NCBI GenBank assembly: GCA_050261575.1
Contig: JBLNDL010000042.1
Location: 62,001 to 99,027, forward strand
Direction: 5' to 3'
DNA: 37,027 nucleotides
DNA from: Sphingomonadaceae bacterium
GTDB lineage: Bacteria; Chloroflexota; UBA6077
The notes under the pieces: model-generated
Database searches by the model: none
The model's input: the letters and a program-made list of their open reading frames with translations, nothing else
What the model was told of the DNA's origin: nothing
Position numbers and translations under genes: made by a program
Shown: in pieces, positions 10,203 to 37,027 of the stretch
Layout: each line of letters opens with the position of its first letter
How positions within the stretch are numbered: position 1 is the stretch's first letter

Positions 10203-10242
10203 CGAATGCGCTCCAAGGACGATGCGTTCTACGACAGTCCCC

Positions 10243-11043: not shown

Positions 11044-11170
11044 GTCAGAACACCGCCAGGTTAGTGCCCGATGGCACGTAACTTGCGCCGACCAGGTAAG
11101 AAGAAGTAGGATTGATGGCCGATTCCTGGCCCCCACCCCAACGTGAGAGCTTGAAGGCGGGAGACCAGCC

Positions 11171-14155: not shown

Positions 14156-14190
14156 TAGTACTCTACGGCTGGAGTGAGAGTTGAACGCTC

Positions 14191-15414: not shown

Positions 15415-15415
15415 A

Positions 15416-16573: not shown

Positions 16574-16626
16574 AGGTGTCCGAAGATGCTCACGACGATC
16601 ATCTCGAAGGCGAGGGCCAACCGCTG

Positions 16627-17811: not shown

Positions 17812-17815
17812 GGGG

Positions 17816-18889: not shown

Positions 18890-18954
18890 CCGGGCTGGTG
18901 CACCTCCTGCATTCGTGCCGGCACAGTACCGCATCGCAGGCAAGCGTGGCTATA

Positions 18955-18984
18955 TTGGCTGATTGCGACGCAATACTGTATAAT
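18955..18984 (+). promoter_or_regulatory. Putative promoter TTGGCT-N18-TATAAT with a palindromic operator in the spacer
   Basis: Perfect TATAAT at 18979-18984 and the inverted repeat ATTGCG-A-CGCAAT at 18962-18974. Confidence 0.55.
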
Positions 18985-19088
18985 ATCGGTAAACTGTCGG
19001 GACGGGCCTCTGCCCCCCCGCTCCAGTTCATAACCCCCATTACCTATCCAGCGGACACGGACAAAAGGTACACATAGGAGCTATTGCC

Positions 19089-20348
19089 GTGAGGGTCGTA
19101 GGGATCAGCAGTTGGGAGCCGCGTGCGTGTGGCATCGCCACTTACTTCAAGGAGCAGAGCGACGCGCTAGCCCGGCTCGGCCACCAGTTTCAGATCGTGA
19201 CGCACACTGACGAGGGCCTCCACCGAGATCAGCCTGGCGTCTTCGGGCTCATCGACGTGAGGGACCCCCACTGGTACCGTCCCGTCCACCATCTGATCGC
19301 CAACAACCTGCGGCCCGACCTGGTGCACATCCAGCACGAGTTCGGACTCTACTCGGCTCCAACGGCGAACGGAGAGGTCGACGCGGACGGGCTGTTGGCC
19401 CTACTGGGGCTGCTTCGGATGGAGGGGATCCCTGTCGTGGTGACCACGCACACCCTCTGCGGAACGATGAAGCCGCACGAGGCGGAACACTACCGGGCCA
19501 TGATCCCTCTCTCCACCATCACCGTGGCACACGCGCCCTACCAGGTGGAGCGTCTGAAGGATAATCTGGGTGCCATTCCCCGCAACGTGACGTACGTGGA
19601 GCACGGGGCCACTCCCCACACGCCCGAGGATGTCGAGGCCATGCGGCTCGAGGGCAAGCACAGATTCGGCCTCGAGGGCCAGCAAGTGGTCGGGCTCAAT
19701 GGCTGGTGGTCGGCAAACAAGAACTTCGTGCCTATCATTCGGGCGTGGGGCACCGAGATCTACCCTAGGCTTCGCAACCGGAATACCGTTCTCGCGGTGA
19801 TGGGGGCGCCTCGCGCGGGGGACGACAGCCAGTTGGCCTACAAAGAAGAGATGATGAGGGCCGTCGAGGAATCCCCGGCTCGCGAGACGATCCGGGTCGT
19901 GGAGAAGAGCTTCCCGCCGGAGGAGTTCGAGCTGTCGCTGGCGGCAATCGATCTCGCCGTGCTGCCCTACGTCTCCGCCTCCCAGTCGGGAGTCGCGGCA
20001 CACACGGGAGCGGTGGGCACGGCCATGGTGTTGCGAGACCTGGAGGGTCTCGGCGCATACGCGCGAGCGGCCGGTCAGGCCCTGATGCCGTTCACCGGCA
20101 ACGCCGCAGCCGACCTCGCGGCTGCTGCCGACACGATAGTGGCGATCATGAACGATCCGGCGCGGCTTCGCCGGATGCAGAGTGACGTCTGCGCATACAC
20201 CCGAGAGGTGATCTCCTGGGATCGAGTTGCCGAGCGGTACGACAGGATATACCGCGCGGCCGTCGCCGTCTCCCGCCAGATCCACGACCTGGAGCACTCC
20301 TACTCCCGTGCGGCGGTGCCATCGATCGACATGATCGTTGCTGCCTGA
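19089..20348 (+). CDS. Glycosyltransferase family 4 (PxxCGIATY subfamily)
   Basis: RBS TAGGAG. PRACGIATY, PDLVHIQHEFGLY, VVVTTHT, EHG, LPY..SQSG, SWDRVAERY. Confidence 0.85.
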   Translation: MRVVGISSWEPRACGIATYFKEQSDALARLGHQFQIVTHTDEGLHRDQPGVFGLIDVRDPHWYRPVHHLIANNLRPDLVHIQHEFGLYSAPTANGEVDADGLLALLGLLRMEGIPVVVTTHTLCGTMKPHEAEHYRAMIPLSTITVAHAPYQVERLKDNLGAIPRNVTYVEHGATPHTPEDVEAMRLEGKHRFGLEGQQVVGLNGWWSANKNFVPIIRAWGTEIYPRLRNRNTVLAVMGAPRAGDDSQLAYKEEMMRAVEESPARETIRVVEKSFPPEEFELSLAAIDLAVLPYVSASQSGVAAHTGAVGTAMVLRDLEGLGAYARAAGQALMPFTGNAAADLAAAADTIVAIMNDPARLRRMQSDVCAYTREVISWDRVAERYDRIYRAAVAVSRQIHDLEHSYSRAAVPSIDMIVAA

Positions 20349-20383
20349 TCGCAGCGCCTAACGGGACGGTGGGAGCCGTGACC

Positions 20384-21445
20384 CTACAGATCCCGCACTA
20401 GATCCAGGAACTGCCTGGCCCTCACAGCGAAGGTATGCTCCCGCAGTGCCCGCGCCCGAAAGCGCTCGCCGAGCTCCATCGCTGCCTCGGGAGTCGTTTC
20501 TCGCAGTAGGGCCAGCATCGACTCAGTGTCGTCGGCCACCAGGATCTCCTTCCCCACCTCGAACAGTTCTTCGAGGCCATCCCAACGATCGGAGATCACA
20601 CAGGCGCCGCAGCCGGCTGCCTCGAACAGCCTCACCGAAGGGCTGTAGCCGTAGACCACCATCGGCCCCCGCGTGATGTTCAGGGTCAAGTCGCACGAGC
20701 TGTAGAACGCGGAATGCATCCCAGGAGGCAGATGGTGGAAGTGGCTAACGTTGGGGGGAAGGGCCATGTCGGGGTACTGCGGTCCCGCCAGCACGAACCG
20801 CTGCTGCGGCAGACCGAGCGCCGGCCGGAGGAAGAGCCTCGCCATGGCTTCCTGCCGGTCCGCGGAGTACGTCCCCATGTATCCCAGGCGGCACCGGAAC
20901 GTCTCGACCGGCTCCACCCTGTAGTGGGTTTCGGGGTCGAGTGCGCAGTAGAAGGCCACTGTCCTCCTTGCCCCCCACCTCTTTTCCAGCTCCGCCAGTG
21001 CCCGTCCTCCGGTGAAGGAGAGCACCGCGTCGAACACAGCTAGCTGCTCTGATTCTAGATATGGGGTGGCCCCGGTGGCGGCGAAAGCCGCCAGCGTCAC
21101 CGGGGTATCGATGTCGTAGTACAGGCGAACGAGATCCCCATGGTTGGCCAGCCGAGTGGCTACCGTCACTCCGTCGGGGAAATAGCTACCCATCAGCACG
21201 ACGTCGCTCCGAGGGATCTCCGTAGCCAGGAGGTCTTCCAACTGGCCCGCCCCACGATACAGCAGGATGCGCGCGAAGTCGGTCCTGGGCAAGTCGCGGT
21301 TCTCCGCGTACCAGGGGACATCCTTTTCCACGAAGGTCACGTCCACTCGCTGGCGGTGCAATTCCTTCAACAGTCCACGGTAGACCGTCGCGTGCCCGTT
21401 TCCCCAGGAGCTAGTGATGCTCAATCCAAAGACCAACAGCCGCAA
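20384..21445 (-). CDS. CgeB-family glycosyltransferase (paralog 3)
   Basis: LLVFGLSITSSWGNGHATVYRG, YDIDTPVTL, LSFTGG, GYMGTYSADRQ, AGPQYP, YSPSVRLFEAAGCG. Start set at TTG 21445 behind AAAGGGAGG; the open frame extends to 21538. Confidence 0.85.
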   Translation of the reverse strand: MRLLVFGLSITSSWGNGHATVYRGLLKELHRQRVDVTFVEKDVPWYAENRDLPRTDFARILLYRGAGQLEDLLATEIPRSDVVLMGSYFPDGVTVATRLANHGDLVRLYYDIDTPVTLAAFAATGATPYLESEQLAVFDAVLSFTGGRALAELEKRWGARRTVAFYCALDPETHYRVEPVETFRCRLGYMGTYSADRQEAMARLFLRPALGLPQQRFVLAGPQYPDMALPPNVSHFHHLPPGMHSAFYSSCDLTLNITRGPMVVYGYSPSVRLFEAAGCGACVISDRWDGLEELFEVGKEILVADDTESMLALLRETTPEAAMELGERFRARALREHTFAVRARQFLDLVRDL

Positions 21446-21543
21446 AGCTGGACCTGCCTCCCTTTGCTGAGGGTGGTCGCCAATACACCCCTGATAGTGC
21501 AGAAGCGGCAACGCCCACGATCTGTTTTCATCCGTCAATCCCG

Positions 21544-21602
21544 TTGAACAAGCTCTGCCGGAGTGCTATTCTAGCGCTTCAGAGTATCGTGCAGAATAGC
21601 AC
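21544..21602. promoter_or_regulatory. Promoter region between divergent genes, with a 10-bp inverted repeat
   Basis: Plus strand TTGAAC-N17-TATTCT with TGn. GTGCTATTCT (21563-21572) is mirrored by AGAATAGCAC (21593-21602). Confidence 0.5.
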
Positions 21603-21637
21603 CAACCTCGCCGACCGAACAGCACACAAGGATCGTT

Positions 21638-23332
21638 GTGACCGACTCGTTCTACAGACCTGACGCCACCGAGCGCGTGACTGGGCGCCCCCCTGCAGAG
21701 ATCACAGCGCGTTTCTTGACGCGTCTGTTCCACGCTCTCGACGCATCGTCGTCCCCCATCGACCTCGCCCCTCAGATCGTAGCCGCCGCCTCGGAGGCGG
21801 TCGCGGGCTGGGCCGCCCTCTGGCTGGTCGACCACGCCGATGGCCATCTCCGTCTCGCAGCCGTACACCACCTCGACTCCGGCAAGGGCTTCCTCGTGGA
21901 GCAGTTGATCGGCGACCACCTGCCGATGTGCTGCGGGCAGGCGGCAGAGAGGCTCCTGGGGTTGCGACGGCCTGTGCGGCTCTATCCTTCCGTAGCCGAC
22001 CTCAAATCCGAAGAGTTGTTCGGGGCGGCGTGCCATGCCGTTCTCGCCACGCAGGTCGGGTTCTCGTGTCTGCTCCTGATCCCGCTGATCCAGGGCAACA
22101 GGAGCCTGGGCTTCCTCCTCGTTGCCCCCTCCGATCATAGTCTCCTCGCCAGCGCTGAGTGGGATGACTTCGCGGCCGAGATGGGCAGTCACGTCTCCAT
22201 CGCCATTACCCAGGTGGAACGGCTCGACGCTGCTCGCGAGGACGGGCAGCAGTTGACGCTGACCAGCCTGTACCTGCAGTCCATCCTCGATAGCATCCCC
22301 CTAGGCGTGGTGATCGCGTCGGCGCCGGAGGGGAGGATCCTTTCGGTCAGTAGAGCCTTGGTGCGACTGCTCGGCCGCTTGCCCGACCCTCAGGCGGCGG
22401 TGCGCCAGTACCCGCAACTCTACGGTCTGGTCAGACCAACCGGGGAACACTGCCGCCCCGAGGATGTGCCCTGGGTGCGCTGCGCGCAGACTGGAGAGCC
22501 TGTCCCGCCTCAGGAGATGATCGTTCGACACCCGAACGGCCTCGCCGTCACCGTGCTGTGCGGCGCATCCCCCATCCGAGACAACCTCGGCCGCACAGTC
22601 GGCTCGGTTGCGCTGCTGCAGGACATTTCCGATCGCAAAGAGTTGGAGCTGCAGAAGGATGAGTTCCTGGCAATGGTCTCACACGAGCTGAAGACGCCCC
22701 TTACCGCCGTCAAAGGCTACGTTCAGCTCTTGATGCGATTCGCGCAGGAGCAGCCGCGAGCCCGCATGGGCGAGCGCGAGATAGGGATGCTCCAGATCGC
22801 TGATCGCCAGGTGACTCGATTGAGCCAGCTCGTGTTCGATCTTCTGGACTTCTCTGTCATCCGAATGGGTCGTCTGGAGCTTCGCCGCTTCAGGATCGAC
22901 ATGGGGACGCTGGCTGGCGAAATCGTAGCTCAGATGCAGTCGACAGTCCCCGATCGGGAGCTAAGGGTCCTGGCCACCGCCGATAGTCTCGTCGACGCTG
23001 ATCCCCATCGGATCGAGCAGTTGCTGACGAACCTCATATCCAACGCGATCAAGGCGACCGACTCCAAGGGGAAGATCGAAGTGAGCGTGCGCCGCAGAGG
23101 CGGCGCAGTGGTCACATCGGTGAGCGACAACGGGGTTGGAATGACCGAGAGCGTCAGGCGGCACATCTTCGATCGCTACTACCGAGGGCCGGACCACCGG
23201 CACGAGGGGATTGGTCTCGGCCTGTATATCAGCAAGGGGATCGTCGACGCCCACGGCGGGGAAATCTGGGTAGAGAGCGAGCCCGGAAAAGGCACCGCAT
23301 TCCACTTCTCCCTACCGGCGGCTGCCGACTGA
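21638..23332 (+). CDS. Cytoplasmic sensor histidine kinase (GAF-PAS-HisKA-HATPase)
   Basis: EFLAMVSHELKTPL (H-box), QLLTNLISNAIK (N-box), SDNGVGM (G1), IFDRYYR (F), GIGLGLYI (G2). The PAS domain ends in LQDISDRK. No TM seen. Confidence 0.92.
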   Translation: MTDSFYRPDATERVTGRPPAEITARFLTRLFHALDASSSPIDLAPQIVAAASEAVAGWAALWLVDHADGHLRLAAVHHLDSGKGFLVEQLIGDHLPMCCGQAAERLLGLRRPVRLYPSVADLKSEELFGAACHAVLATQVGFSCLLLIPLIQGNRSLGFLLVAPSDHSLLASAEWDDFAAEMGSHVSIAITQVERLDAAREDGQQLTLTSLYLQSILDSIPLGVVIASAPEGRILSVSRALVRLLGRLPDPQAAVRQYPQLYGLVRPTGEHCRPEDVPWVRCAQTGEPVPPQEMIVRHPNGLAVTVLCGASPIRDNLGRTVGSVALLQDISDRKELELQKDEFLAMVSHELKTPLTAVKGYVQLLMRFAQEQPRARMGEREIGMLQIADRQVTRLSQLVFDLLDFSVIRMGRLELRRFRIDMGTLAGEIVAQMQSTVPDRELRVLATADSLVDADPHRIEQLLTNLISNAIKATDSKGKIEVSVRRRGGAVVTSVSDNGVGMTESVRRHIFDRYYRGPDHRHEGIGLGLYISKGIVDAHGGEIWVESEPGKGTAFHFSLPAAAD

Positions 23333-23499
23333 GTGCCCCGCCTGACGGTCGTCGCCTTTTGCGGGGCGGGGTACGAACCAGGTGTCTCTAGGCAGGGTAC
23401 GCGTTTCACGCTAGATGAGTTGGCGTGAACCAAGCAGGTATCTATAGCTGGAGTACGCGGTTTCCGCCAGAGAAGTTGACATGGACTGGAGATGCCTGC

Positions 23500-23898
23500 T
23501 CAGTCGTTGGGGTCGTCGTGCCTCGGGTCCCTGGCTGTCAGCAGTCCCCGCACCGTTTCGACCAGTTCCGAGGGCCGGCACCCCATCAACAAGACGGCAT
23601 CGGCACCAGCCTCCTCGGCGACTCTCCGCTGCGCAACGTCGTTGGCCAGTACCACATAGCTGCTATCGGGGAACGCTGTCTTCAGTCGACACAACACCTC
23701 GGCAGGCTGCGCCTCCACCGGATCGAGGTCGAGGACGATCACGGCCGGCCGCAGAGCGACCATCTCCGCCAGCGTGGATGGAAAGCTGTTCGTCCATACG
23801 ATGGCCTCGACTCCTGGAATCGTCTTCAGCAGACCCTGCAGGCCGTCGGCCAGCGGACCGGCCTTGACCACGAGCAGCAGCCGCGAGTTGGCGGTCAT
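23500..23898 (-). CDS. Stand-alone degenerate receiver-domain protein
   Basis: RBS GGGGG. RLLLV..PL.DGL..LL, RPAVIVLD, AGADAVL..G..PSEL..TVR follow the REC fold pattern. Confidence 0.65.
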   Translation of the reverse strand: MTANSRLLLVVKAGPLADGLQGLLKTIPGVEAIVWTNSFPSTLAEMVALRPAVIVLDLDPVEAQPAEVLCRLKTAFPDSSYVVLANDVAQRRVAEEAGADAVLLMGCRPSELVETVRGLLTARDPRHDDPND

Positions 23899-23983
23899 CG
23901 TTTTCCCCCGGTCCTGCCGAACTCGGGTTATCTCAGCACGAAAGGCTACACCTTCCCGCATCCGTATGCATCGGCAGGAAGGC

Positions 23984-24006
23984 GTATCCGCCGATGGTCA
24001 GAAAGG
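23984..24006 (-). promoter_or_regulatory. Putative regulator site, copy 1 (TCTGAC-N4-GGCGGA)
   Basis: The minus strand reads CCTTTCTGACCATCGGCGGATAC, 19/23 identical to 26445-26467. Confidence 0.45.
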
Positions 24007-24059
24007 ATCACTCCGCGAACGCGAGGGTGTACGCAATACGGCCTACGGGGGAGAAGCGG

Positions 24060-24716
24060 TCAGCTCCGGCCCGGTTCCACCAGTCCCTCACGCAGTGCAT
24101 AGAGCGCGGCCTGGGTGCGGCTGGGAAGCCGGAGCTTGTGCAGTATGTGGCTCACGTGGGCGTGGACGGTGCGTTCGCTGATGACGAGTGCCTCTGCGAT
24201 CTCTCGATTGGTGAATCCCCTGGCCAGGAAGGCCAGTATCTCGACTTCGCGAGGGGAGAGCGGCTCGCCGCCGGCAACCGGCGGGTTCTGAGGACGGGTG
24301 AATCCGCTGATCAGCTTCTTCGCGATGGCAGGCGGCAACGGTGCTTCGTCGCGCGCCACGTCCTGGATAGCCTTCAGAAGCTCTTGAGGAGGAGACTCTT
24401 TGAGCATGTAGCCCAAAGCCCCCGCCTTGATGGCGCTGATGATCTTCTCGTCCTCGGCGTAGCTGGTCAGCACGAGGATCCGGGTGTCGGGGGACTCCTG
24501 CAGGATCCCGGGAATCGCGCTGATGCCATCCGTTCCCGGCATAAGAAGGTCGAGCAGCACGACGTCGGGCCTAAGCTCACGCGCTCGACTCACTGCCTCC
24601 TGTCCGTCTGCTGCTTCGCCCACGGCCTCCATGTCGTCGTGGCAAGAGAGCAGTGCCCTCAATCCCTCTCTCACGACTGGATGATCGTCGGCAATGAGAA
24701 CCCGTATGCGTGCCAT
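24060..24716 (-). CDS. NarL/FixJ-family response regulator (REC + LuxR HTH)
   Basis: IRVLIADDHPVVREGL, PDVVLLDLLMP, VLTSY, GYMLK, LSPREVEIL..LARG.TNREIA..L.ISERTV..HVSHIL.KL. Confidence 0.95.
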   Translation of the reverse strand: MARIRVLIADDHPVVREGLRALLSCHDDMEAVGEAADGQEAVSRARELRPDVVLLDLLMPGTDGISAIPGILQESPDTRILVLTSYAEDEKIISAIKAGALGYMLKESPPQELLKAIQDVARDEAPLPPAIAKKLISGFTRPQNPPVAGGEPLSPREVEILAFLARGFTNREIAEALVISERTVHAHVSHILHKLRLPSRTQAALYALREGLVEPGRS

Positions 24717-26164
24717 CAGCGTGAGACCTCCGACGCCTCGACTGGGCTATCCGCCCCAATGTCATCCAGTGGCCACGAGTGGTTCTGAACGAGCGGCACC
24801 GTAACTCGGGCGATCGTTCCGTGTCCCGGGGTCGAGTGAATCGATATCGAGCCCCCTAGCCGCGCAGCGCGTTCCCGCATCGTCGTCAGGCCGAGCCCTC
24901 CCTCGTCGGCACCGCTTGGATCGAAGCCCCTTCCATTGTCGGAGATGGTCATCTCCACCACCCCATGCGTGGCTCGCAGACCGATCTCCACCGATGTGGC
25001 TTGGGCGTGCTTCAGCGCGTTGTTCAGCGCCTCCTGCGCTATTCGATAGAGCCCCTCCTCCACCGACGAATGGAGTTCCAGAGTGCCCTCGACGTGCATC
25101 CGGGCATCCATGCCCGACCGCCTCTCGACGGCGTCGAGCCTGCGCTGCAAGGAGACCACCAGCCCTTCCTCCGCCGGTCCCAACGGACGCAACTCGTACA
25201 GCAGCAACCGCATCTCCTTCAGGGCCTGCTGGGCGGTCTCGCCGAGCCTTTCGAGGTACTGCAGGGCCTCCGTGATCCGTCCGGTCGTCATCATCTGGCG
25301 AGCCGCTTCGGCCAGGAGCATCTCGCTGTAGGTGAGCTGTGTAACCGAGTCGTGGAGTTCGCTCGCCAGCCGGTGCCTCTCCGCCAACGTCGCCTTGTCC
25401 TGGGCCTCCGCAAAGAGGCGAAGGTTCTCGACCGCGCCCCCGATGTGCTCGCTGACGGCCGTCAGAAGTGCGGTCTCGTCGGTGCTGAACGGCCGGTCCG
25501 ACGGACGGAACAGGCATAGCGTTCCCACCACCTGCCCCTTGCTCCGGATTGGCAGCGCGACTTGGGCCAGTCCGCCCGCTCGGCGGACCGCAGGGCGGGT
25601 TCGGCCGTCCGACGAGAGACTCCCAGTCCCCCTGCACTCCTCGCTACCCCACTCCCCGCGGCCGCACTCCCCAAACGGCAGTGATTCCCCCATTGGGGCA
25701 GCGAGCGTGCAGAGAGGTTTGCAGGATGCGCTCTCTGGGGCCACGACGCTCAGCCTCCCGTACGTCGGATCGCGGAGTTGGATGGCTCCTGCCACGCTGT
25801 CGAGGGCAGTGACGATCCGGTCCAGGGAGCGCTGCAGCATCACCTGGACGTCGAGGCAGCCACCCACGACGGCGGCGACCTCGTACAGCGTCTTGAGCTG
25901 GAGCATGCGCTCGGACATGCGCTGCTCCAGTTGAGCCACCAACTGTTGGCTTTCCGCCACTCGCTGGCGCAGTTGGCTCTGCAGCCTCGCCCGCTCGACA
26001 TCCGCCGACTTGCGTCTTGCCCGATCCCCTATCAGCCTCGGCAGCAGCAGGCCGGCCGCGACGAGTAGGGTCAGCGGTCGGCACCTGCCCACGCCCGTTA
26101 GAAGAGCCCAGGCGCGCGCTAGTTTCACGCCGAAGAGGGGGATCACGTGCGCTCCCACAGCCAC
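24716..26164 (-). CDS. GAF-containing sensor histidine kinase, HisKA_3 type (start uncertain)
   Basis: ERHRLASELHDSVTQ, YRIAQEALNNALKHAQA, DNGRGF, GLGLTTMRERA. TGATG overlap with the response regulator start. Confidence 0.9.
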   Translation of the reverse strand: MAVGAHVIPLFGVKLARAWALLTGVGRCRPLTLLVAAGLLLPRLIGDRARRKSADVERARLQSQLRQRVAESQQLVAQLEQRMSERMLQLKTLYEVAAVVGGCLDVQVMLQRSLDRIVTALDSVAGAIQLRDPTYGRLSVVAPESASCKPLCTLAAPMGESLPFGECGRGEWGSEECRGTGSLSSDGRTRPAVRRAGGLAQVALPIRSKGQVVGTLCLFRPSDRPFSTDETALLTAVSEHIGGAVENLRLFAEAQDKATLAERHRLASELHDSVTQLTYSEMLLAEAARQMMTTGRITEALQYLERLGETAQQALKEMRLLLYELRPLGPAEEGLVVSLQRRLDAVERRSGMDARMHVEGTLELHSSVEEGLYRIAQEALNNALKHAQATSVEIGLRATHGVVEMTISDNGRGFDPSGADEGGLGLTTMRERAARLGGSISIHSTPGHGTIARVTVPLVQNHSWPLDDIGADSPVEASEVSR

Positions 26165-26444
26165 GCCGAGAGGTCACGGCGCCGGTGCTACCGAGGAAAC
26201 CGGTAGCAGGATCCACAGCAACTATCAATCAGTTTATCTTCAAGACTCATGCCATTAGCTCACTCTTTCTCGCGTATCTGCCTTCTGCCAAGCGGGTTCT
26301 CTGTCGAGATGTCCTCCATCCCAGCGAAAGCCTTCCTGCCGCCTGGCCACCGTCCCCGCAACTGCCGTCACCAGTAGGCACAATTGCCTACGGGCGTTCG
26401 CCGGTTCGTAAGCATCAATGCGGTCGTGCCACTGCACGGACGCG

Positions 26445-28857: not shown

Positions 28858-31800
28858 ATGAGACGAAAGTGGGCCGCGATCGCCATAGCCATGCTGCTCG
28901 TGGCACAGGTTTCCGGCGCACCTCTGCCTGTGCCCGGCGCGGGCAAGCCTCCACCTGCCTCCGCGCAGGCCGCGACCACGAACACGATCAAGCTCAGGGT
29001 AACCAGTGCAAGGACGGAGCCCAAGGCTGGGGTCCAGAAGGGTGACCCGATCACAGACTACAGATTCCTCATCAACGTCGACAACACAGGCGATCCCTTC
29101 GACGAGACAGCCTGCAACCCCTTCCTGGACGAGGCGATGACCCAGCGCAACCCCAACTACCCAGACGGTTGCGACCTGCCGTCGATTCGGACTGTTCCAG
29201 CTTGGTCTCCGATCTACACGCAGGGTGGGGCAAGCGACCTCAACGAGACCACCACGATGACGCTGACCCCAGGCAAGTACCTCATCTCCGTGGAGGCCGA
29301 GGGGTACAAGATGGATGGCGAACACTTCACCATCCCGATGCCGGACCCCGACGGCGATGGCGTCGGCCTCGTAGAAGTGCAGATGCATCCCCTGCCCTTG
29401 CCCCCGGCCACCATGGTGATCAAGGTCTTCGAAGATGTCTCGATGACCAACGGCCAGTTCGACGGGCCGGTGGAAGACGGGCTGGCGGGTTTCCGAGCCA
29501 GTCTCAACGACATCGCGGGTGAGATCACCACCGACCTGTTCGGCAACCCACTGTGCACGCAGTACGAGAAGGACGCAGCGGGAAACGTAGTGCTCAACCC
29601 AGATGGGACCCCGCAGGTCAAGTCGCTCGGGAACGGCTGCTACAGCGACTCCGAGGGGATCATCACTATCCCCAATATCGGCCCGCTCCGGTACGACGTG
29701 CTGGTGTTCCCACCCGCCGGCCAGCAATGGATCCAGACTACCACCCTGGAGGGCTCGCAGGGTTGGGACACCTGGCTCCAGGAGGCTGGCACGGGGCTGG
29801 ACAACGAGTTCGTCGTGGCCGGAGAGCCCTTCCCGTGGACGATCTTCGGCTTCGTCAAGCCCAAGACCCCTGACCTCGGCGGGACGGGCTCGATCAAGGG
29901 CGTCATCATGGCCTCCGCCACCTTCTTCCCATCCGAGGGAGGGCTCCCCTACCAGGGACGGATTTTCGGTGGCCTGGCCGGCACCAAGACATTCCGACCG
30001 ATCAACAGGCCGTGGCTAGCCTTGAACGACCTGCAGCAGGGCGACACCGCCGTGTGGGTCGGGCAGGGCAACCCCGATGGCAGTTTCAACATCCCGAACG
30101 TCCCGCCGGGCAACTACTTCTTGACCTACTGGGACGAGAAGCAGCACTTCATTCTGGACTTCGTCCAGGTGACGGTGGAAGCCGGCAAGACAACCGACGT
30201 CGGGGTTCGCACCATCTCCGGCTGGTTCACCGAGATCTCGGGGACCGTTTTCCACGATTACAACGAAAACGGGAAGCGAGACACGGGTGAGCCGGGGATC
30301 CCCAACTACACTGTGGTGCTGAAGGATCGGGACAACACCCAGATCGACCGCATGTCGGTCGCCGCGCTTACCGACGGCAACGGTTTCTACGAACTCGAGA
30401 AGGGCTACCCCATGGGCTCCTGGATGGTGCTGGAAGCCTACAGCGACCTGCACCGCACCACGGGGGTCACCTACCAGACACTCAACATGCCTGAGGAGGT
30501 GACCCTGAAAGACGCCGTCGTCGACCTGGGCATACTCCCAATCCTAGGCCAGCCGGTCAGGGTAGATTGGGGCGTGAAGCCTTACGGTCCCGACGAGAAC
30601 GGCGGAATCGGGGGCACGGTCTACTACGATACCGTCCGGGCTGAGGACAACGCCCGCTACGCCGGGGCCGAACCGTGGCAGCCCGGCATTCCCGGCCTCA
30701 CCGTGAACCTCTATGCCGCACAGGTCGACGCCTTCGGAGTCCCGATGAAGGCGCCCGACGGCTCCCTAGCCAAGGGCCAGCTCCTGGCTACTACGGTGAC
30801 CGAGACCTACGAGCGCCCCAAAGGATGCCAGCCGCGGGACGTCGACGGCAATCCCATGGACTTCCCGGCGGTGCCTCCGGCGGGATCGAACAAGGACTGC
30901 CTGGAAGCCCCTCTCATGGGAACACAGGTCGGGAACGGGCAGAACCCTCTGGACGGCAACTGGGGCTTCTCGGAGATCATGTTCAACCCAGACGGTTCCC
31001 TCATACCGGAGGGTAGCCGGCCCACGCTGCCGCCGGGCAACTACCTGGTGGAGGTCGTCATCCCCAACGACAAGTCCGGCAAGCCCATGTTTCAGGTGAC
31101 GCGGGAAGAGGACCTGAACGTATTCGACGGAGACGAGTTCGAGCCAGCCATACCTCCGCCGCCATGCGCCGGTCCTCTGCACATCGTGGACATCAAGGGC
31201 GTCGGGCAGGACAACTACCCTGCCAGGACCCTGGACGATGGGACCGTGGTGCCCGCCTCCACGCCGGTGGACAACCCTGCTTTCGCCGCCGCCTACCCCA
31301 GCCGCTACGAGGGACAGGTGATGCCGCTCTGCAACGTCAAGCACGTTGTCCTGCAGAACGGCCGATCGGTGGCACCCATCTTCAACCTCTTCACCGACGT
31401 TCCGATCCCCGGCAGGTGGAAGGGCTACATCATCAACGACTTGAGCCTCTCGGTGAACCCTGCCGAGCTGTTCTTCGGTGAACTGGCGGGGCTGCCCAAG
31501 GTTCCCATCGGCCTGTACGACTACAGCGGTCGCCTGGTGCACACCATTCACTCCGACAGAAACGGCGTGTACGAGGCACTTCTGCCATCCGATGGGACCA
31601 CCAACGCACCATCGCCGAGCGGGATGCTCGCCAACGTCTACTATATCTATGGCAACGATCCTGGTCCTGTGGGCAGGCCGAACCCGACCTACAACCCGCA
31701 GTTCCGCTCCATCGGCACCAGCTTCGAGGTCTACCCAGGCACCATCCTCCCATCGGACCTGGCGCCGGTCCAGAACGGGGCCACCATATTGAGCCCCGGC

Positions 31801-33897
31801 AGCCAATTCGCCCAGCCTTCTCAGTGCAAGCTGGAGCCGACGACTCCGCAGATCTACGCCGTATCCCAACCGTACGTGAGCGGACGCGGCCAGATCACGA
31901 TCTCCGGAACCGGGTTCGGCAGTTCCCCCGGGAAGGTAGTAGTCGGAAAGGCCACCGTCGTGGTGAGGGAGTGGAGCGACCGTAGGATCGTGGCGGAGAT
32001 CAGTGGCCAGACTGGACCGCATCAACTGATCGTGACCGCTGCCAACGGTGAATCCACTCGCAACGGCCTGACGATCCACGTGATCGGCGGAGGCTACGTC
32101 CCGAAGGTGTACGAGGTGGGACCGGGGAAGACCTACGATCCTGCTAACTACGATGGAACGGGCCGAGGTCCCATCCAGCACGCCCTGGACGATGCGTGGG
32201 CGGCCCGTGGCCCGGCGCTAGTCGTCGTCTACCCCGGCAGGCCGGTTCCGATGGTCAACCCACTGGGCGCCTACCTGGAGAATCCGGTGATCTACTCGCC
32301 TGTGAGGCTGCAGGGGGTGGGGCCTGGTGGAACCTATCCGGATGCCGACGCCGTGGCCGGATCCATCATCGATGGGCGCGCGGTCGGCGGCGATAGCCCG
32401 TATTCGGACTGGTGGCGCAAAACACTGATCCCGGACATCTGGAACAACCGCGGAGGATGGGACCGGGGCCTGGTGGACGGTGACGGCAACCCAATGGTCT
32501 ACGAGGGCGCGGTCATCACCGTCTTCGGTGAGAGGAACGAGTTCGTCTCGGGGTTCAACGCGGCGATGATCGACGGGTTCGCAATTCAGGGTGGCGACCA
32601 GCAGGGCTTCCCGAACAACCTGGAACAAATCGGTGGCACTCCCATCCCGGGTGCCCAGCCGGCTGTGGTCACCCAAGGCGGCGGCATCTTCGTGGATGGG
32701 TTTGCTCACTACCTCCAGATTACCAACAACGTGATCCAGGGCAACGGCGGGAGCTACGGCGGAGCCATCCGGCTGGGGACCCCTAACGTGGCGGCACCGC
32801 TCACCGACAACAACAACGACAACATCGTCATCTCCAGGAACCGCATCATCGCCAATGGCGGGACCAACCTGGCGGGGGGGATCGGAGTGTTCGCAGGCTC
32901 GGACAACTACGAGATCTCCTACAACGACCTGTGCGGAAACACCTCGGTCGAGTACGGTGGCGGCATAAGCCACTACGGTTACAGCCCTGGTGGCAAGATC
33001 CACCACAACCGTATCTACTTCAACTCGGCGTACGACGAGGGCGGAGGCATCATGATCGCCGGAGAGCTACCGGCCGATCCGACCAAGCTCTCGCCGGGGG
33101 CCGGCCCCGTCGACATCTACAACAACTTGATCCAGTCCAACCTGTCCAACGACGACGGTGGCGGCCTACGCTTCCTGATGGCGGGCACCTTCACCTACAA
33201 CGTGTACAACAACCTGATCGTGAACAACGTCTCCACCCACGAGGGTGGCGGGATATCCCTGAACGATGCGACGAACGTGCGCATCTTCAACAACACGATA
33301 ATGAAAAACATCACCACCGCCACGGCCATGACCAGCAATGGTCTTCCGGCTCCGGCTGGCCTGTCATCGTCGAGGAACAGCGCGCTGCTTCAGGCCAAGC
33401 TGCCCTCGAACGCCCCGAAGTTCAGCAATCCGGTCCTGTTCAACAACGTCTTCTGGGACAACCGCGCCGGCACCTGGACCGGAGATGGCGTCTCGGGCAT
33501 CGGCCTGCCTGGGGATCCGGCAGCGGTCTTCCACTGGGATCTCGGGCTGGCAGATGGATCGGGTCAGCTCAACCCTCAGTACTGTCTGCTGCAGGTTCCG
33601 TACGGCAACAACGAGACCAACATCGTGGGAAGGAATCCGGCCGTGGTGCAAGAGTACGACACCACGGTGCGGGTCTTCCCATGGCGCGGGAATCCCAACT
33701 TCATCGGCGCCACCATCGTGGCGGTCGATCTGCCGGTGACACTGATGGGGAACTACCGCCTCACCAGCCTGTCGCCAGCCATCGATGTCGGTGCCTCGTG
33801 GGTGTCTGGAACGGCGGCGCCCAGGCAGGACTACGACGATCAATACCGGCCGTTCGGCAGCAAGTATGACCTCGGAGCCGACGAGGTCGTCAAGTAA
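28858..33897 (+). CDS. Large exported protein (1679 aa): SdrD-B-like repeats, IPT/TIG domain, right-handed beta-helix and choice-of-anchor-Q-like C-terminus
   Basis: RBS AAGGAGG and a Sec-type signal MRRKWAAIAIAMLL. ISGTVFHDYNENGKRDTGEPGI, ITISGTGFG..WSD, repeated GGGI..NN.I..N, YRL..SPAID.G..D...RP...DLGADE. The ORF-track start at 28414 is a spurious extension. Confidence 0.85.
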   Translation: MRRKWAAIAIAMLLVAQVSGAPLPVPGAGKPPPASAQAATTNTIKLRVTSARTEPKAGVQKGDPITDYRFLINVDNTGDPFDETACNPFLDEAMTQRNPNYPDGCDLPSIRTVPAWSPIYTQGGASDLNETTTMTLTPGKYLISVEAEGYKMDGEHFTIPMPDPDGDGVGLVEVQMHPLPLPPATMVIKVFEDVSMTNGQFDGPVEDGLAGFRASLNDIAGEITTDLFGNPLCTQYEKDAAGNVVLNPDGTPQVKSLGNGCYSDSEGIITIPNIGPLRYDVLVFPPAGQQWIQTTTLEGSQGWDTWLQEAGTGLDNEFVVAGEPFPWTIFGFVKPKTPDLGGTGSIKGVIMASATFFPSEGGLPYQGRIFGGLAGTKTFRPINRPWLALNDLQQGDTAVWVGQGNPDGSFNIPNVPPGNYFLTYWDEKQHFILDFVQVTVEAGKTTDVGVRTISGWFTEISGTVFHDYNENGKRDTGEPGIPNYTVVLKDRDNTQIDRMSVAALTDGNGFYELEKGYPMGSWMVLEAYSDLHRTTGVTYQTLNMPEEVTLKDAVVDLGILPILGQPVRVDWGVKPYGPDENGGIGGTVYYDTVRAEDNARYAGAEPWQPGIPGLTVNLYAAQVDAFGVPMKAPDGSLAKGQLLATTVTETYERPKGCQPRDVDGNPMDFPAVPPAGSNKDCLEAPLMGTQVGNGQNPLDGNWGFSEIMFNPDGSLIPEGSRPTLPPGNYLVEVVIPNDKSGKPMFQVTREEDLNVFDGDEFEPAIPPPPCAGPLHIVDIKGVGQDNYPARTLDDGTVVPASTPVDNPAFAAAYPSRYEGQVMPLCNVKHVVLQNGRSVAPIFNLFTDVPIPGRWKGYIINDLSLSVNPAELFFGELAGLPKVPIGLYDYSGRLVHTIHSDRNGVYEALLPSDGTTNAPSPSGMLANVYYIYGNDPGPVGRPNPTYNPQFRSIGTSFEVYPGTILPSDLAPVQNGATILSPGSQFAQPSQCKLEPTTPQIYAVSQPYVSGRGQITISGTGFGSSPGKVVVGKATVVVREWSDRRIVAEISGQTGPHQLIVTAANGESTRNGLTIHVIGGGYVPKVYEVGPGKTYDPANYDGTGRGPIQHALDDAWAARGPALVVVYPGRPVPMVNPLGAYLENPVIYSPVRLQGVGPGGTYPDADAVAGSIIDGRAVGGDSPYSDWWRKTLIPDIWNNRGGWDRGLVDGDGNPMVYEGAVITVFGERNEFVSGFNAAMIDGFAIQGGDQQGFPNNLEQIGGTPIPGAQPAVVTQGGGIFVDGFAHYLQITNNVIQGNGGSYGGAIRLGTPNVAAPLTDNNNDNIVISRNRIIANGGTNLAGGIGVFAGSDNYEISYNDLCGNTSVEYGGGISHYGYSPGGKIHHNRIYFNSAYDEGGGIMIAGELPADPTKLSPGAGPVDIYNNLIQSNLSNDDGGGLRFLMAGTFTYNVYNNLIVNNVSTHEGGGISLNDATNVRIFNNTIMKNITTATAMTSNGLPAPAGLSSSRNSALLQAKLPSNAPKFSNPVLFNNVFWDNRAGTWTGDGVSGIGLPGDPAAVFHWDLGLADGSGQLNPQYCLLQVPYGNNETNIVGRNPAVVQEYDTTVRVFPWRGNPNFIGATIVAVDLPVTLMGNYRLTSLSPAIDVGASWVSGTAAPRQDYDDQYRPFGSKYDLGADEVVK

Positions 33898-34003: not shown

Positions 34004-35407
34004 ATGATCAGACGTAGTTCTCCTGCTTCTCTCACCCGCAGAGACTTCCTCAAACTCGGCGGCGGAGTCCTGGGAGCGATGGCGGGATCGAACCTGGTGG
34101 CCAGGGCGCTCCTGCAGCCGGAGAAGGCGCACGCGGCCACGGCAAGTCGTGCGCCCGCGCGGTCAGTGGCACCGGCAACTAATGCACAAACCACCGCGCC
34201 CAGCCTGCACCTGGTTGCCACCGACGGATGGATTTCGCTTCCGCCTGAGGCCGTCGTCTTTCCCTATCACCCGGACGACATGGCGCCGGAGCCGTTCACG
34301 ACCTACATCTTCGGGTTCCGCGACGTCACATCGGTGTCGGCGAACGGCGACCTGGTCGCCGCGCAGAAGATGAAGGCGCAGCTCACAGCGCCGCTGTTCT
34401 GGATCGAGCAGGAGGCCGACTACACCCTGAGGCTCAGCAACCTCGGGCTGAGACTCCGGCCGGACCTGGTCGACGCTCACACGGTGCACTTTCACGGCTT
34501 CCGCAACGCCATCCCCGTCTTCGATGGGGAGCCTCACTCGTCGGTGGGCGTGCCAATCAAACGCGACCTGACCTACTTCTACCGCCCTCACCACCCGGGG
34601 ACCTACATGTATCACTGCCACTTCGAGGAGATCGAGCACGTCCACATGGGGATGATAGGTCCCTGCTTCGTCACGCCGATCCAGAACTATGGGCGCACCA
34701 CCCCCGGCGGACCGGAGGTGGTGACTCCGGCGAGGCTCGGCGGAAACACCGATCCCGGGGCACCCAGAGGCTATTGCTACAACGACGGCGACGGCTCGAC
34801 CGCCTACGACAGAGAGTTCGTCTTGGTACTTAGCGAGATCTGGGCAGAATCCCACTGGTGCGACTCGCACATTCAGTTGCCCGAGTGGAGTGACTACAAG
34901 CCCGACTTCTATCTCATCAACGGAAGGGCGTACCCCGACACACTCCTCCCGAACGGGGCTGGCACCGATCCGGCCACCGGCGACCTGATGCCCCCGCCGG
35001 GGCATCCCGAGTTGCAGTACCAGCCGACATCCTCCCTTATCCAGGCCAACGCGGGCGACCGCGTGCTGCTGAGGATCATCAACCTCGGCTACGAGGAGCA
35101 TGCGATGCGGCTCGACGGCATCAAGATGCGGGTGGTGGGGAAGGATGCATCTCTACTGCGGGGCCGTGACGGCGCGGACCTGACCTACCTGACCAACACT
35201 GTGGTGATCGGACCCGGCGAGAGCGTGGATGCCATCTTCGTCGCGCCGCCGCACACGGGCACGGCCGGCTACGATCGCTTCCTGTTCTACAACCGCAACT
35301 ACCATCGCCTCAGCAACGGAGGGCACACCGGCTATGGCGGGCAGATGACGGAGGTCCGAGTGTTTCCCGCGGGCGCACTGCCCGCGCAGACAGCCCCCAA
35401 CACGTAG
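34004..35407 (+). CDS. Tat-exported two-domain multicopper-oxidase-like protein A (copper ligands in domain 1 only)
   Basis: RBS GAGGGG and Tat motif TRRDFLK. HTVHFHG (34478-34498), PGTYMYHCHFEEIEHVHMGM, INGRAYP, GDRVLLRIINLG. Domain 2 reads HAMRLDG and FLFYNRN. Confidence 0.88.
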   Translation: MIRRSSPASLTRRDFLKLGGGVLGAMAGSNLVARALLQPEKAHAATASRAPARSVAPATNAQTTAPSLHLVATDGWISLPPEAVVFPYHPDDMAPEPFTTYIFGFRDVTSVSANGDLVAAQKMKAQLTAPLFWIEQEADYTLRLSNLGLRLRPDLVDAHTVHFHGFRNAIPVFDGEPHSSVGVPIKRDLTYFYRPHHPGTYMYHCHFEEIEHVHMGMIGPCFVTPIQNYGRTTPGGPEVVTPARLGGNTDPGAPRGYCYNDGDGSTAYDREFVLVLSEIWAESHWCDSHIQLPEWSDYKPDFYLINGRAYPDTLLPNGAGTDPATGDLMPPPGHPELQYQPTSSLIQANAGDRVLLRIINLGYEEHAMRLDGIKMRVVGKDASLLRGRDGADLTYLTNTVVIGPGESVDAIFVAPPHTGTAGYDRFLFYNRNYHRLSNGGHTGYGGQMTEVRVFPAGALPAQTAPNT

Positions 35408-35439
35408 GGGTGGAGCGAGCGTTTGAAGCGAGGTGAACC

Positions 35440-37027
35440 ATGAGACCACGAATCGGGCTTACCCGACTTCCCTCGTTTGTGATGCTGGGGTTGGCGGCGC
35501 TGGCAGTGTTGGCCCTCACCGGCGTTGACGGGCCGGCCACGGCCCAGAGTGCGGCGTTGCCCCGGACGGGCATGATCTGCTCTACCAGCCCATCCGCCAC
35601 CTTCACGCTCACAACCAAGGAGGGGTACATTTCCATTCCCGACGGCAACACCGTGTACATGTGGGGCTTCAGCGAAGGGAACAAGTCCTTCCAGCATCCG
35701 AGTCCAGTGCTCTGCGTGCAGGAAGGGGACACGGTGACCATCACTCTCCACAACACCCTCAATGAGGACGTGTCGATCGTCTTCCCCGGCCAGGAGAACG
35801 TGCTTGCCAACGGGGTGCCTTCCCAACCGGTGTTCAACGATGCGGGTGAACTTCTCTCGCTTGCACCCGTTGCTCCGGCCAACGGCGGCAGCGTGACCTA
35901 CAGCTTCGTTGCCAACCGGCCGGGGACATTCATCTACGAGAGTGGCACCGAGCCAGCGAAGCAGGTCAACATGGGACTGTACGGAGCCCTCGTCGTCCGT
36001 CCTGCGCTCGATCCGTCGCTGCCGACCACCGACCCCCACACCGGCCAGCCGATCGCCTATGCGTATAACGACGCCGGCACGGCGTACGACCCATCGACGG
36101 AATACCTGCTGATCATGGCCGAGATCGACCCCGAACTGCACACGGCCGTGGAGCAGGGGCTCCTGTACGACATGAACCGGTACACCCCGCGCTACTGGAC
36201 TTACAACGGTCGGAGCTTTCCGGACACGGTGGCCGACAACGGCGCGACTCATCTGCCGAACCAGCCGTACAGCGCGCTGGTGTACATGCGACCGCTGGAT
36301 CCCAACCCCACGCTGAGCGATGGCAGTCCGAACCCGGGCTACAACCCGCGACCCGTCCTGATCCGCCACCTGAACGTGGGAACCGTCGACTTCTCCCACC
36401 ACCCACACGGCAACCACGGCAGGGTCATCGCGTGGGACGGCCACCAATTGAAGGGAGAGGACGGTAGGGACAGATCGATCGAGAAGTTCACCGTTACCGT
36501 GGCTCCCGGGCGGACCCTGGACGCCCTCTTCGCATGGGTCGATGTCGAGAAGTGGAACCCGGTGACCAACCCCATCCCGGTGGCCATACCTCAATTGCAG
36601 GATCTGACCATCGGCCAGTTCTTCGGCGGCAGTCCATATCTGGGCCAGGAGGAGAACCTTCCTGTGGGCACCCAATCCTTCAACCAGTGCGGGGAGTACT
36701 ACCACATCGCGCACAGCCACTCACTGCACAAGATCTCCGCCTGGGGCATCGTGCTGAGCGGGCACATCACCTTCGCCCGCATCGATCCGCCGTTGCCGAA
36801 CCAGTGTCCCGACGTGGGGCTTCCCACACCCGCAGCAACTTCGACGGCGACGGCCACCGGGGAGCCGACGACGCCTACGCCGACAGACACGGCCACTCCG
36901 ACCGAGACGGCCACTCCGACCCCGACGGCCACTCCGACCGAGACACCTCTGCCTGCCACGGAGACGCCGACCGCGACCCCCACCGCCACGGAGACCCCGA
37001 CCGCCACACCCACAGCCACCCAGGACA
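35440..37027 (+). CDS. Exported two-domain multicopper-oxidase-like protein B (His ligands in domain 2 only) with T/P-rich tail, truncated by the window end
   Basis: Absent from the ORF track because it has no stop in the window. Manual translation from ATG 35440 (RBS GAGGTG): MRPRIGLTRLPSFVMLGLAALAVLAL, VYMWGF, PSPVLCVQEGDTVTITLHN, VSIVFPG, PGTFIYESGT..QVNMGLYGALVVRP, NGRSFPDT, FSHHPHGNH, YYHIAHSH, then PTATPTET repeats. Confidence 0.88.
   Translation, partial: MRPRIGLTRLPSFVMLGLAALAVLALTGVDGPATAQSAALPRTGMICSTSPSATFTLTTKEGYISIPDGNTVYMWGFSEGNKSFQHPSPVLCVQEGDTVTITLHNTLNEDVSIVFPGQENVLANGVPSQPVFNDAGELLSLAPVAPANGGSVTYSFVANRPGTFIYESGTEPAKQVNMGLYGALVVRPALDPSLPTTDPHTGQPIAYAYNDAGTAYDPSTEYLLIMAEIDPELHTAVEQGLLYDMNRYTPRYWTYNGRSFPDTVADNGATHLPNQPYSALVYMRPLDPNPTLSDGSPNPGYNPRPVLIRHLNVGTVDFSHHPHGNHGRVIAWDGHQLKGEDGRDRSIEKFTVTVAPGRTLDALFAWVDVEKWNPVTNPIPVAIPQLQDLTIGQFFGGSPYLGQEENLPVGTQSFNQCGEYYHIAHSHSLHKISAWGIVLSGHITFARIDPPLPNQCPDVGLPTPAATSTATATGEPTTPTPTDTATPTETATPTPTATPTETPLPATETPTATPTATETPTATPTATQD
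36889..37014 (+). repeat. Coding tandem repeats in the T/P-rich linker
   Basis: Three 18-bp units ACGGCCACTCCGACC(GA/CC)G at 36889-36942, and two imperfect 30-bp units at 36955-36984 and 36985-37014. Confidence 0.8.

Follow-up and report, generated by a model that had tools for sequence, protein, structure and literature searches.

The window analysed here, a stretch of 37,027 nucleotides from a Sphingomonadaceae bacterium (Chloroflexota, UBA6077; assembly GCA_050261575.1, contig JBLNDL010000042.1, positions 62,001 to 99,027), ends in two adjacent genes, A and B, for paralogous two-domain multicopper oxidases (MCOs) that divide one set of copper ligands between them. The only type 1 (T1) copper site and half of the ligands of the trinuclear copper cluster, four histidines, lie in domain 1 of A, and domain 2 of A has none. 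The full MCO set of a T1 site and eight cluster histidines is reached by A and B jointly only: A contributes H159, C205, H212 and M217 together with H162, H164, H204 and H206, and B contributes H321, H323, H425 and H427. Both genes are part of a cassette, G-A-B-C-D, in which G encodes a giant secreted beta-helix protein, C a third two-domain MCO paralog that is free of copper ligands, and D a small protein with one membrane helix. We consider it likely, at a probability of roughly 0.7, that A, B and C form a secreted hetero-oligomeric two-domain MCO, which would most likely be a 1:1:1 ring with one active site.

Partition of the copper ligands between A and B

Translation places the four live motifs and their degenerate counterparts exactly where the first-pass annotation, which was made from the sequence alone, had put them. 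The features of both genes are as follows (window positions):

34004..35407, + strand: A, two-domain MCO paralog of 467 amino acids with a twin-arginine translocation (Tat) signal
34034..34054, + strand: twin-arginine motif TRRDFLK of A, residues 11-17
34478..34498, + strand: HTVHFHG in domain 1 of A, residues 159-165; H159 is a T1 ligand, H162 and H164 are trinuclear cluster ligands
34613..34654, + strand: HCHFEEIEHVHMGM in domain 1 of A, residues 204-217; H204 and H206 are cluster ligands, C205, H212 and M217 are T1 ligands
35099..35119, + strand: degenerate first His motif HAMRLDG in domain 2 of A, residues 366-372
35285..35299, + strand: degenerate second His motif FYNRN in domain 2 of A, residues 428-432
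35440..37027, + strand: B, two-domain MCO paralog with a Sec-type signal peptide; frame open at the last base
35773..35790, + strand: dead first motif SIVFPG in domain 1 of B, residues 112-117, without His
35932..35946, + strand: dead second motif IYESG in domain 1 of B, residues 165-169, with E167, S168 and G169 in place of His-Cys-His
36400..36411, + strand: HPHG in domain 2 of B, residues 321-324; H321 and H323 are cluster ligands
36712..36720, + strand: HSH in domain 2 of B, residues 425-427; H425 and H427 are cluster ligands
36826..37027, + strand: C-terminal Pro/Thr-rich linker of B, of which the last 121 nucleotides are an exact repeat

The profile-profile alignment of the two families (E 2.6e-41, 326 columns) sets the live motifs of each protein opposite the degenerate motifs of the other:

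A H159, H162 and H164 opposite B V111, V114 and P116
A H204-C205-H206, H212 and M217 opposite B E167-S168-G169, Q175 and L180
B H321 and H323 opposite A R369 and D371
B H425 and H427 opposite A F428 and N430

In B, Q175 stands at the position of the T1 histidine. The profile-profile and phmmer alignments confirm the earlier description of A and B as mirror images in their ligands. By phmmer, the best solved relatives of A are BCO (3g5w, E 3.3e-10) and mgLAC (2zwn, E 4.4e-10); A aligns to both domains of both structures and its live motifs fall on theirs. The motifs HAMHSHG and FHDHVDTH of mgLAC are found opposite HAMRLDG and FYNRNYH of A, respectively, and there is a weak match of A to 5n0k (E 0.0051). 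Moreover, A exceeds the Pfam cut-offs of the models PF07731 (Cu-oxidase_2, 46.1 bits), PF07732 (Cu-oxidase_3, 37.8 bits) and PF00394 (Cu-oxidase, 28.6 bits). The Tat signal is recognised by TIGR01409 (TAT_signal_seq, 19.8 bits vs. a cut-off of 16.7), and R12 and R13 are at least 90% conserved among 76 orthologs.

B passes the cut-off of PF07732 (39.0 bits), and Pfam recognises its domain 1 alone. The AlphaFold model of B has a mean predicted local distance difference test (pLDDT) score of 85.1, and its top Foldseek matches are 2zwn (E 9.1e-20) and 3g5w (E 1.0e-18). The structure of SufI/FtsP (2uxt) is also among the fold matches of B, and SufI/FtsP is a weak NCBIfam match as well. The models of both B and C match 2zwn and 3g5w across about 300-410 columns.

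The end of the feature was at first set at 36800, which is too short: the frame of B continues without a stop to position 37027, where both the window and contig C42 end, and runs off inside the Pro/Thr-rich linker. The 121-nucleotide exact repeat at this end (window 36907-37027) has three copies only in the genome, the other two being located at L009:1-121 and L009:9266-9386, and it breaks the assembly. Since the start of contig C79 (locus L009) is the sole outgoing copy of the repeat, the window most simply continues into C79. The repeat is common to B, the open reading frame (ORF) at the start of C79, which consists of linker and discoidin domain, and the S8 peptidase gene at the end of C79. 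Near-identical Pro/Thr linkers seemingly occur in several secreted proteins, and weaker copies are present on C59, C96, C88, C66 and at C42:88944.

Conservation, gene linkage and gene fusions

For a genome set, one genome per species was scanned and the best 80 of 396 stretches with relatives of A were used, which are 48-67% identical to A. They are labelled as Chloroflexota, Anaerolineae and related groups, many genera of the Actinomycetota (Micromonospora, Kribbella, Actinoplanes, Nonomuraea, Nocardioides, Amycolatopsis and Dactylosporangium) and one contig of a metagenome-assembled genome (MAG) labelled Anaeromyxobacter. Cultured carriers are represented by the records from Micromonospora, Kribbella, Actinoplanes, Nonomuraea and Nocardioides. 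B follows A in 78/78 loci with at least 600 nucleotides of room, and C follows B in all 73 loci with room. G is located 5′ of A in 77 of the 80 loci, the three misses being loci in which A stands at the start of a contig. The cassette genes are on one strand throughout, and their ends often overlap. A metagenome set was obtained by using an 11-protein alignment of long G-A relatives as the query; 76 loci were kept of 496 relatives, and their ORFs were scored with hidden Markov models of A, B and C. A was identified in 70 of these loci, and wherever there was room, B followed A (58/58) and a third paralog followed B (44/44).

The ligands are as strictly kept as the gene order. In the genome set, A H159, H162, H164, H204, C205, H206, H212, M215 and M217 are each present in 81/81 sequences, and all nine positions are also invariant in the 69 metagenome sequences. 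The His pairs of domain 2 of A are absent from all of the 81, 35 and 69 sequences of the genome set, the long relatives described below and the metagenome set, respectively, and R431 is kept in 80/81. Likewise, B H321 and H323 are present in 76/76 and H425 and H427 in 75/76 genome-set sequences, the single miss being a truncated sequence, and all four are found in 50/50 metagenome sequences; no domain 1 ligand occurs in B in either set. A further, exhaustive search with B of 1.84 billion cluster representatives gave 201 matches at E <= 1e-30, and 142 of the best 150 were of the B type. Where these representatives were aligned, H321 and H323 are each present in 109/112, H425 in 84/85 and H427 in 83/85. 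Three matches of B that had been flagged with an internal stop turned out to be intact single-frame alignments from residue 33/34 to residue 457.

The dead half-sites are conserved, too. In B, S112 (76/76), F115 (75/76), P116 (73/76) and G117 (76/76) are kept around the first motif, and Y166, G169, Q175 and G179 are each present in 76/76 sequences. In C, Y164, A166, Q175 and G179 are each present in 70/70, and R431 of A (80/81) is a further example. Such strong conservation would be expected of maintained interfaces, although some of these residues are part of the cupredoxin core.

Among 301 sampled genomes of the phylum, A was detected in nine (E <= 1e-50), and B lies next to A in the same nine and is also found in genome G285. 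C is present in the same ten, where the three genes are always neighbours, and gave two weak hits of 33-34% identity, which are probably other MCOs. The distribution is thus patchy, with the cassette in 10/301 genomes, and none of A, B or C was found without the other two at the level of orthologues in this sample. The conservation of the His motifs of B (76/76 and 75/76, 50/50, and 83-109 of 85-112 representatives) and the co-occurrence of A and B in both locus sets and in the same sampled genomes bear out what the first-pass annotation had anticipated. The locus was also found in 11 sequencing runs from five studies, which are all DNA runs of soil metagenomes; no RNA run is listed.

A, B and C can be aligned with each other over both domains using hhalign (A-B E 2.6e-41, B-C 2.6e-63, A-C 2.4e-36). 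A maximum-likelihood tree was calculated from 93 modules, 31 per family, consisting of the reference, 18 random sequences from the genome set and 12 random sequences from the metagenome set, with the remaining sequences left out. In this tree, A, B and C each form one side of a branch (Shimodaira-Hasegawa-like approximate likelihood ratio test support 100, 94 and 91, respectively), B and C are sisters under midpoint rooting, and each family splits alike into the genome set and the metagenome set. These parallel splits indicate that both the gene triplication and the division of the ligands are older than the spread of the cassettes sampled here.

Two kinds of natural gene fusions have been observed. 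Long relatives of A (819-2335 amino acids), with source names including Methyloprofundus, Bathyarchaeia, Hydrogenedentes and Gammaproteobacteria, carry G-like sequence N-terminal to the A module in 35/35 cases. In each of the 35 A modules, the ligands of domain 1 are retained and those of domain 2 are missing. Among the metagenome loci, G and A form a single ORF in L092, L119, L131 and L161 only and are separate frames in many others, which indicates that the G-A fusion is lineage-specific. Furthermore, B and C are fused in nine of the 28 long relatives of B (P0158-P0164, P0167 and P0166, the last being partial), in which the B module (about residues 10-430) is followed by a linker of about 150 amino acids and the C module. 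The core group of the B-C fusions is 57-89% identical over 850-940 aligned residues and, thus, the fusions are not one-off errors. All four His are retained in the B modules of the fusions, apart from position 427 in the most distant member, P0167, where a K is found that may result from misalignment. A single chain consisting of A, B and C was not seen among these relatives, the longest natural joins being G-A and B-C.

The predicted A-B complex and alternative readings

The complex of A (residues 66-462) and B (residues 50-462) was predicted using our own 76-row alignments and three controls. The interaction prediction score from aligned errors (ipSAE) of A and B was 0.89, 0.89 and 0.90 vs. 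0.00 for the best control, the pLDDT of the partner was 92, and the runs agree in at least 96% of the contacts. The ipSAE mark is reached by 116/157 solved complexes and by 2/215 mismatched pairs, counts that are rough here because of the use of our own alignments. The interface comprises A residues 158, 162, 164-172, 206-211 and 213-214 and B residues 321, 323-326, 420-423 and 426-430. In each chain, three of the four cluster histidines touch the other chain (A 162, 164 and 206; B 321, 323 and 427). Thus, the prediction that both His sets would meet in one A/B interface holds in the model. Domain 1 of B makes no contact in the A-B model and would be free for a third subunit.

Two-domain MCOs are described as homotrimers whose cluster is located where domain 1 of a chain meets domain 2 of its neighbour (PMC3192119, PMC11761707). 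Given this cluster position and the ligand map, the active site would be composed of A domain 1 and B domain 2, and it is very probable that A and B share a trinuclear cluster. Closure of the ring needs contacts of B domain 1 with domain 2 of a third chain and of domain 1 of this chain with A domain 2; C is the parsimonious candidate for the third chain, from which the order B-A-C follows, and it is reasonably likely that C completes the ring. A B-C fusion would have to bridge non-adjacent termini in this order, to which its long linker fits. The ring would have a geometry like that of the known homotrimeric two-domain MCOs and would be pseudo-six-domain, with one T1 site and one trinuclear cluster at the A/B interface. 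The substrate would be oxidised one electron at a time at the T1 copper of A domain 1 (H159, C205, H212, M217), and the electrons would pass via the C205-H204/H206 bridge to the trinuclear cluster. The latter would be bound by A H162, H164, H204 and H206 and by B H321, H323, H425 and H427 at the A/B interface, where O2 would be reduced to water. The ligand-free interfaces between B domain 1 and C domain 2 and between C domain 1 and A domain 2 would only hold the ring together. Finally, the ring would be docked to the giant beta-helix protein G via A, and the whole of G, A, B, C and D would constitute a cell-surface machine. We observe how the ligands are partitioned and conserved, that the genes are strictly linked and in part fused, and that the His motifs are in contact in a confident A-B model; that copper is bound, that catalysis takes place, and the 1:1:1 stoichiometry, ring order and surface location are what we infer.

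This scheme retains the shared A domain 1/B domain 2 site in a hetero-oligomer that had been proposed for A and B, but the unit is the G-A-B-C-D cassette and not the pair; G, C and D had been missed by the first-pass annotation. With the ligand-free paralog C, an A-B-C heterotrimer is likeliest, rather than A2B or AB2.

Several points weigh against the scheme. The ipSAE score may reflect geometry remembered from the solved homotrimeric two-domain MCOs, and it would then report the likeness of the interface and not affinity. A and B are the only pair that was modelled, and the model would not imply that A prefers B over itself. The place of C in the ring is deduced from linkage, paralogy, fold and the B-C fusions, and copper binding and catalysis are deduced from sequence and predicted structure. 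Moreover, the signal of A is of the Tat type and those of B, C and G are of the Sec type; the cluster would need to be assembled outside the cytoplasm from separately exported chains. One to three of the B-type cluster representatives lack one of the His, which may be due to fragmentary sequences or misalignment. Read-through in gene calling may account for some of the 35 long G-A fusions. Finally, G285 (L090, G285:C2:396000-413000) has G, A, B and C in order, but its A and B are split over several frames. The matches to A and B in this seven-contig assembly contain TGA stops, due to either decay or indel errors.

It is also conceivable, though unlikely, that A and B form the composite copper site and that C stays outside the ring as a non-catalytic surface protein that has kept the cupredoxin fold. 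The oxidase would then be an A/B-only oligomer, for instance an A-B pair or a ring in which one subunit is present twice. This would suit the facts that only A-B was modelled and that C is without any ligand and has its own N-terminal helix and long immunoglobulin (Ig)-like C-terminal repeats. However, all 73 genome loci and 44 metagenome loci with room have C after B, nine long proteins are fusions of B and C, and C has the two-domain fold of BCO (3g5w, template modelling (TM) score 0.74, root mean square deviation (rmsd) 2.9 A). The dead half-sites of C are highly conserved, as expected for a maintained interface, and the surface of B domain 1 is unoccupied in the A-B model. Moreover, a three-membered ring of A and B only would set a ligand-free face against a ligand-bearing one.

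A more radical and distinctly improbable alternative is that there is no shared site at all. A could act on its own as a blue-copper (T1) electron carrier or be an enzyme with a partial site, B and C could be copper-binding or structural surface proteins, and the complementarity could be a by-product of independent decay after gene triplication. Indeed, ligand-depleted proteins with an MCO fold such as SufI/FtsP (2uxt) exist, and the trinuclear cluster is a prediction. However, exactly four plus four His would not have stayed invariant under independent decay in lineages of only 35-40% identity and in two collections, while the other eight positions are never His, and in a pure T1 protein the four cluster histidines of A would be without a role. 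The model, too, places both His sets in one interface. It is very unlikely that the locus reflects an error of assembly or annotation or consists of pseudogenes in decay, even though the window ends in a contig-breaking repeat and the relative in G285 has frame breaks: all three frames are open and of full length, intact copies of the cassette recur in over 130 independent loci, both of cultured Actinomycetota and of MAGs, and the B matches flagged with an internal stop proved to be intact single frames.

If the A-B-C ring exists, it would amount to a naturally unfused version of the six-domain MCOs, with one catalytic centre only, and would be living evidence of subfunctionalisation of a homotrimer to a heterotrimer on the route that has been proposed for the origin of the six-domain MCOs. 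It would be a clear case of a transition from a homo- to a hetero-oligomer by complementary loss and an extant step between the trimeric two-domain and the six-domain oxidases. A catalytic copper cluster that is obligatorily split over two gene products, with the third ring member being empty, would also be a new quaternary solution. The known MCO forms that were found in the literature are single chains or homo-oligomers with a full ligand set per chain, and a natural hetero-oligomeric two-domain MCO was not found in the literature searched, which excludes most subscription journals, so that a prior description is possible. In practice, the genes go under ordinary names such as 'multicopper oxidase' and even 'manganese oxidase', and laccase mining by expressing any one of A, B or C alone should yield inactive protein. 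The presence of the cassette in cultured genera makes it directly testable.

Related oxidases, cassette partners and neighbouring genes

The closest known enzymes are the type C MCOs such as BCO from Nitrosomonas europaea (3g5w) and metagenomic mgLAC (2zwn), which also have two cupredoxin domains per chain and, like A, the motifs HxxHxH and HCH-x5-H and a T1 site in domain 1. Type C MCOs are one gene product with 12 ligands per chain and three sites per ring, whereas the cassette splits the ligands and would allow at most one site per ring. The T1 site in domain 1 is present in A and absent from B and C. Type C enzymes have four plus four cluster His in each chain and, thus, three clusters per homotrimer; in all orthologs examined here, the four His of domain 1 occur in A only, those of domain 2 occur in B only, and C is devoid of both. 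Since none of the chains carries all ligands, A, B and C are not classed among the type C enzymes proper; they are MCO superfamily members with a type C two-domain ancestry. The A-B composite would function in the manner of a single interface in a type C trimer, and with one cluster per six domains the assembly would resemble a six-domain MCO.

In six-domain MCOs such as ceruloplasmin and MnxG from Bacillus, a pseudo-threefold ring harbours a single trinuclear cluster between two domains. The MCO classes with two, three and six domains have been described previously (PMC7036934). The six-domain enzymes are single polypeptides, whereas A, B and C are separate reading frames, so that there are three genes here (two where B and C are fused) with one T1 site kept. 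In the Mnx complex, MnxE and MnxF are small and not MCO paralogs, and the catalytic coppers are all in MnxG. This complex (MnxG and MnxE3F3), which is described as a multimeric bacterial MCO assembly from neighbouring genes (PMC5622069), is alike in being a multimeric MCO assembly encoded by adjacent genes. An 'alpha-alpha-alpha-prime heterotrimer' has been described for Nmar_1354 (9cck), in which a single gene product supplies all chains, which differ in whether an extra domain has been removed by proteolysis, and a full cluster is present at every interface (PMC11761707). The Nmar_1354 ring resembles the putative A-B-C ring in having non-identical two-domain chains, but in the cassette the chains derive from different genes and the ligands are split. 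Fungal laccase heterodimers with small subunits (PMC10443355) reportedly have partners that are not MCOs.

MofA/OmpB-type proteins are described as large secreted MCOs of metal-oxidising or metal-reducing bacteria, whose clusters carry mofB for a peptidyl-prolyl isomerase and mofC for a cytochrome c (PMC5566968). They resemble the G-A fusions of about 2000 amino acids in size and secretion; mofB and mofC were not seen beside the cassette. MofA/OmpB was considered as a possible identity of G-A; the published gene neighbourhood is a different one. In copper nitrite reductases, the type 2 copper is bound by two His of domain 1 and one His of domain 2 of the neighbouring chain, without the HxH pairs of MCOs. 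This assignment was rejected: A and B score 17.6 and 34.6 bits with TIGR02376 vs. a cut-off of 296.3, nitrite reductase chains match weakly, A carries HxxHxH and HCH motifs of the MCO type, and two HxH pairs are found in B.

Acidic residues near the T1 site mark metallo-oxidases such as Fet3p and ceruloplasmin. In A, E208 (34625-34627) and E211 (34634-34636), which are located between HCH and the T1 histidine, are invariant in 81/81 sequences and also part of the consensus of the G-A alignment. According to the phmmer alignment, E211 is common to BCO and mgLAC, and E208 is absent from both. The two residues may form a cation-binding site beside the T1 copper and, by analogy to Fet3p and ceruloplasmin, they give a weak hint at a metal ion, either Mn(II), Fe(II) or Cu(I), as the substrate. 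The name 'manganese oxidase' on 3/120 homologs is an automatic label and no evidence of the substrate. The beta-helix and beta-sandwich domains of G would equally suit binding of a polymer or mineral surface, and the strict association with G, a protein of about 1700 amino acids, points to an extracellular substrate. We see an even chance that the cassette represents a previously unrecognised class of extracellular oxidases, in which an obligate A-B-C heterotrimer sits on a scaffold of G, the C repeats and D that offers the single T1 site a metal ion, such as Mn(II) or Fe(II), or else a substrate that is insoluble or polymeric. Such a class would be widespread in soil Actinomycetota and Chloroflexota and would have a G-A-fused form in other phyla.

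The remaining members of the cassette are located as follows:

28858..33897, + strand: G, secreted protein of 1679 amino acids with a Sec-type signal peptide, the first gene of the cassette
L009:1-537, start of C79: discoidin (F5/8 type C) domain after the linker
L009:592-2976: C, 794 amino acids, with an N-terminal membrane helix, a two-domain MCO module and Ig-like C-terminal repeats
L009:3081-3572: D, 163 amino acids, with one N-terminal membrane helix and a beta-rich domain, 3′ of C

According to Pfam and NCBIfam, G is composed of SdrD_B, CarboxypepD_reg and fn3_3 beta-sandwiches, a TIG domain and a C-terminal right-handed beta-helix, in which a weak choice-of-anchor-Q match is located. 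A NosD-like function of G was rejected since the match (16.2 bits vs. a cut-off of 300) reflects beta-helix repeats only. C exceeds the cut-off of PF07732 (50.3 bits), and the model of its MCO module (pLDDT 89.8) has BCO (3g5w) as the best match (E 1.7e-23, TM score 0.74, rmsd 2.9 A). Copper ligands were found in neither domain of C, and none are conserved in 70 genome-set and 38 metagenome-set sequences. D follows C in 65 genome loci and 30 metagenome loci and belongs to no family in Pfam, NCBIfam or Atlas. It was rejected as a copper chaperone, as conserved His, Cys and Met are absent from 97 aligned sequences. The signal peptides, the membrane helices of C and D, the Ig-like repeats and, in this genome, the discoidin domain suggest a location at the cell surface. 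No other MCO-domain gene was detected in this genome (103 contigs, 100% complete by marker genes), PF07732 being assigned to B and C only and PF07731 to A only, and protein searches of the genome with A and B returned A, B and C only.

On C79, D is followed by two genes for FtsX-like ATP-binding cassette (ABC) permeases and an ATPase gene (L009:4049-7194), which recur in 7-10 of 80 loci. The ABC transporter and the S8 peptidase downstream were not accepted as members of the cassette since they recur in 7-16 of 80 loci only. Directly upstream of the cassette (window 21575-26173), there are genes for a PAS histidine kinase on the + strand and for a LuxR-type response regulator and a GAF histidine kinase on the - strand. 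These two-component genes were rejected as cassette members, too, because the 15-43 loci matched at 67-94 bits are generic family hits. Further upstream, the window contains a radical SAM protein gene and five glycosyltransferase genes (GT4/Glyco_trans_1_2; 14185-21565), which are preceded on their 5′ side by two ORFs without a Pfam match (11147-12052 and 12056-14152). At 7809-10316, the - strand encodes a large fused restriction-modification methylase, which is Eco57I/MmeI-like and has a TaqI-like specificity domain.

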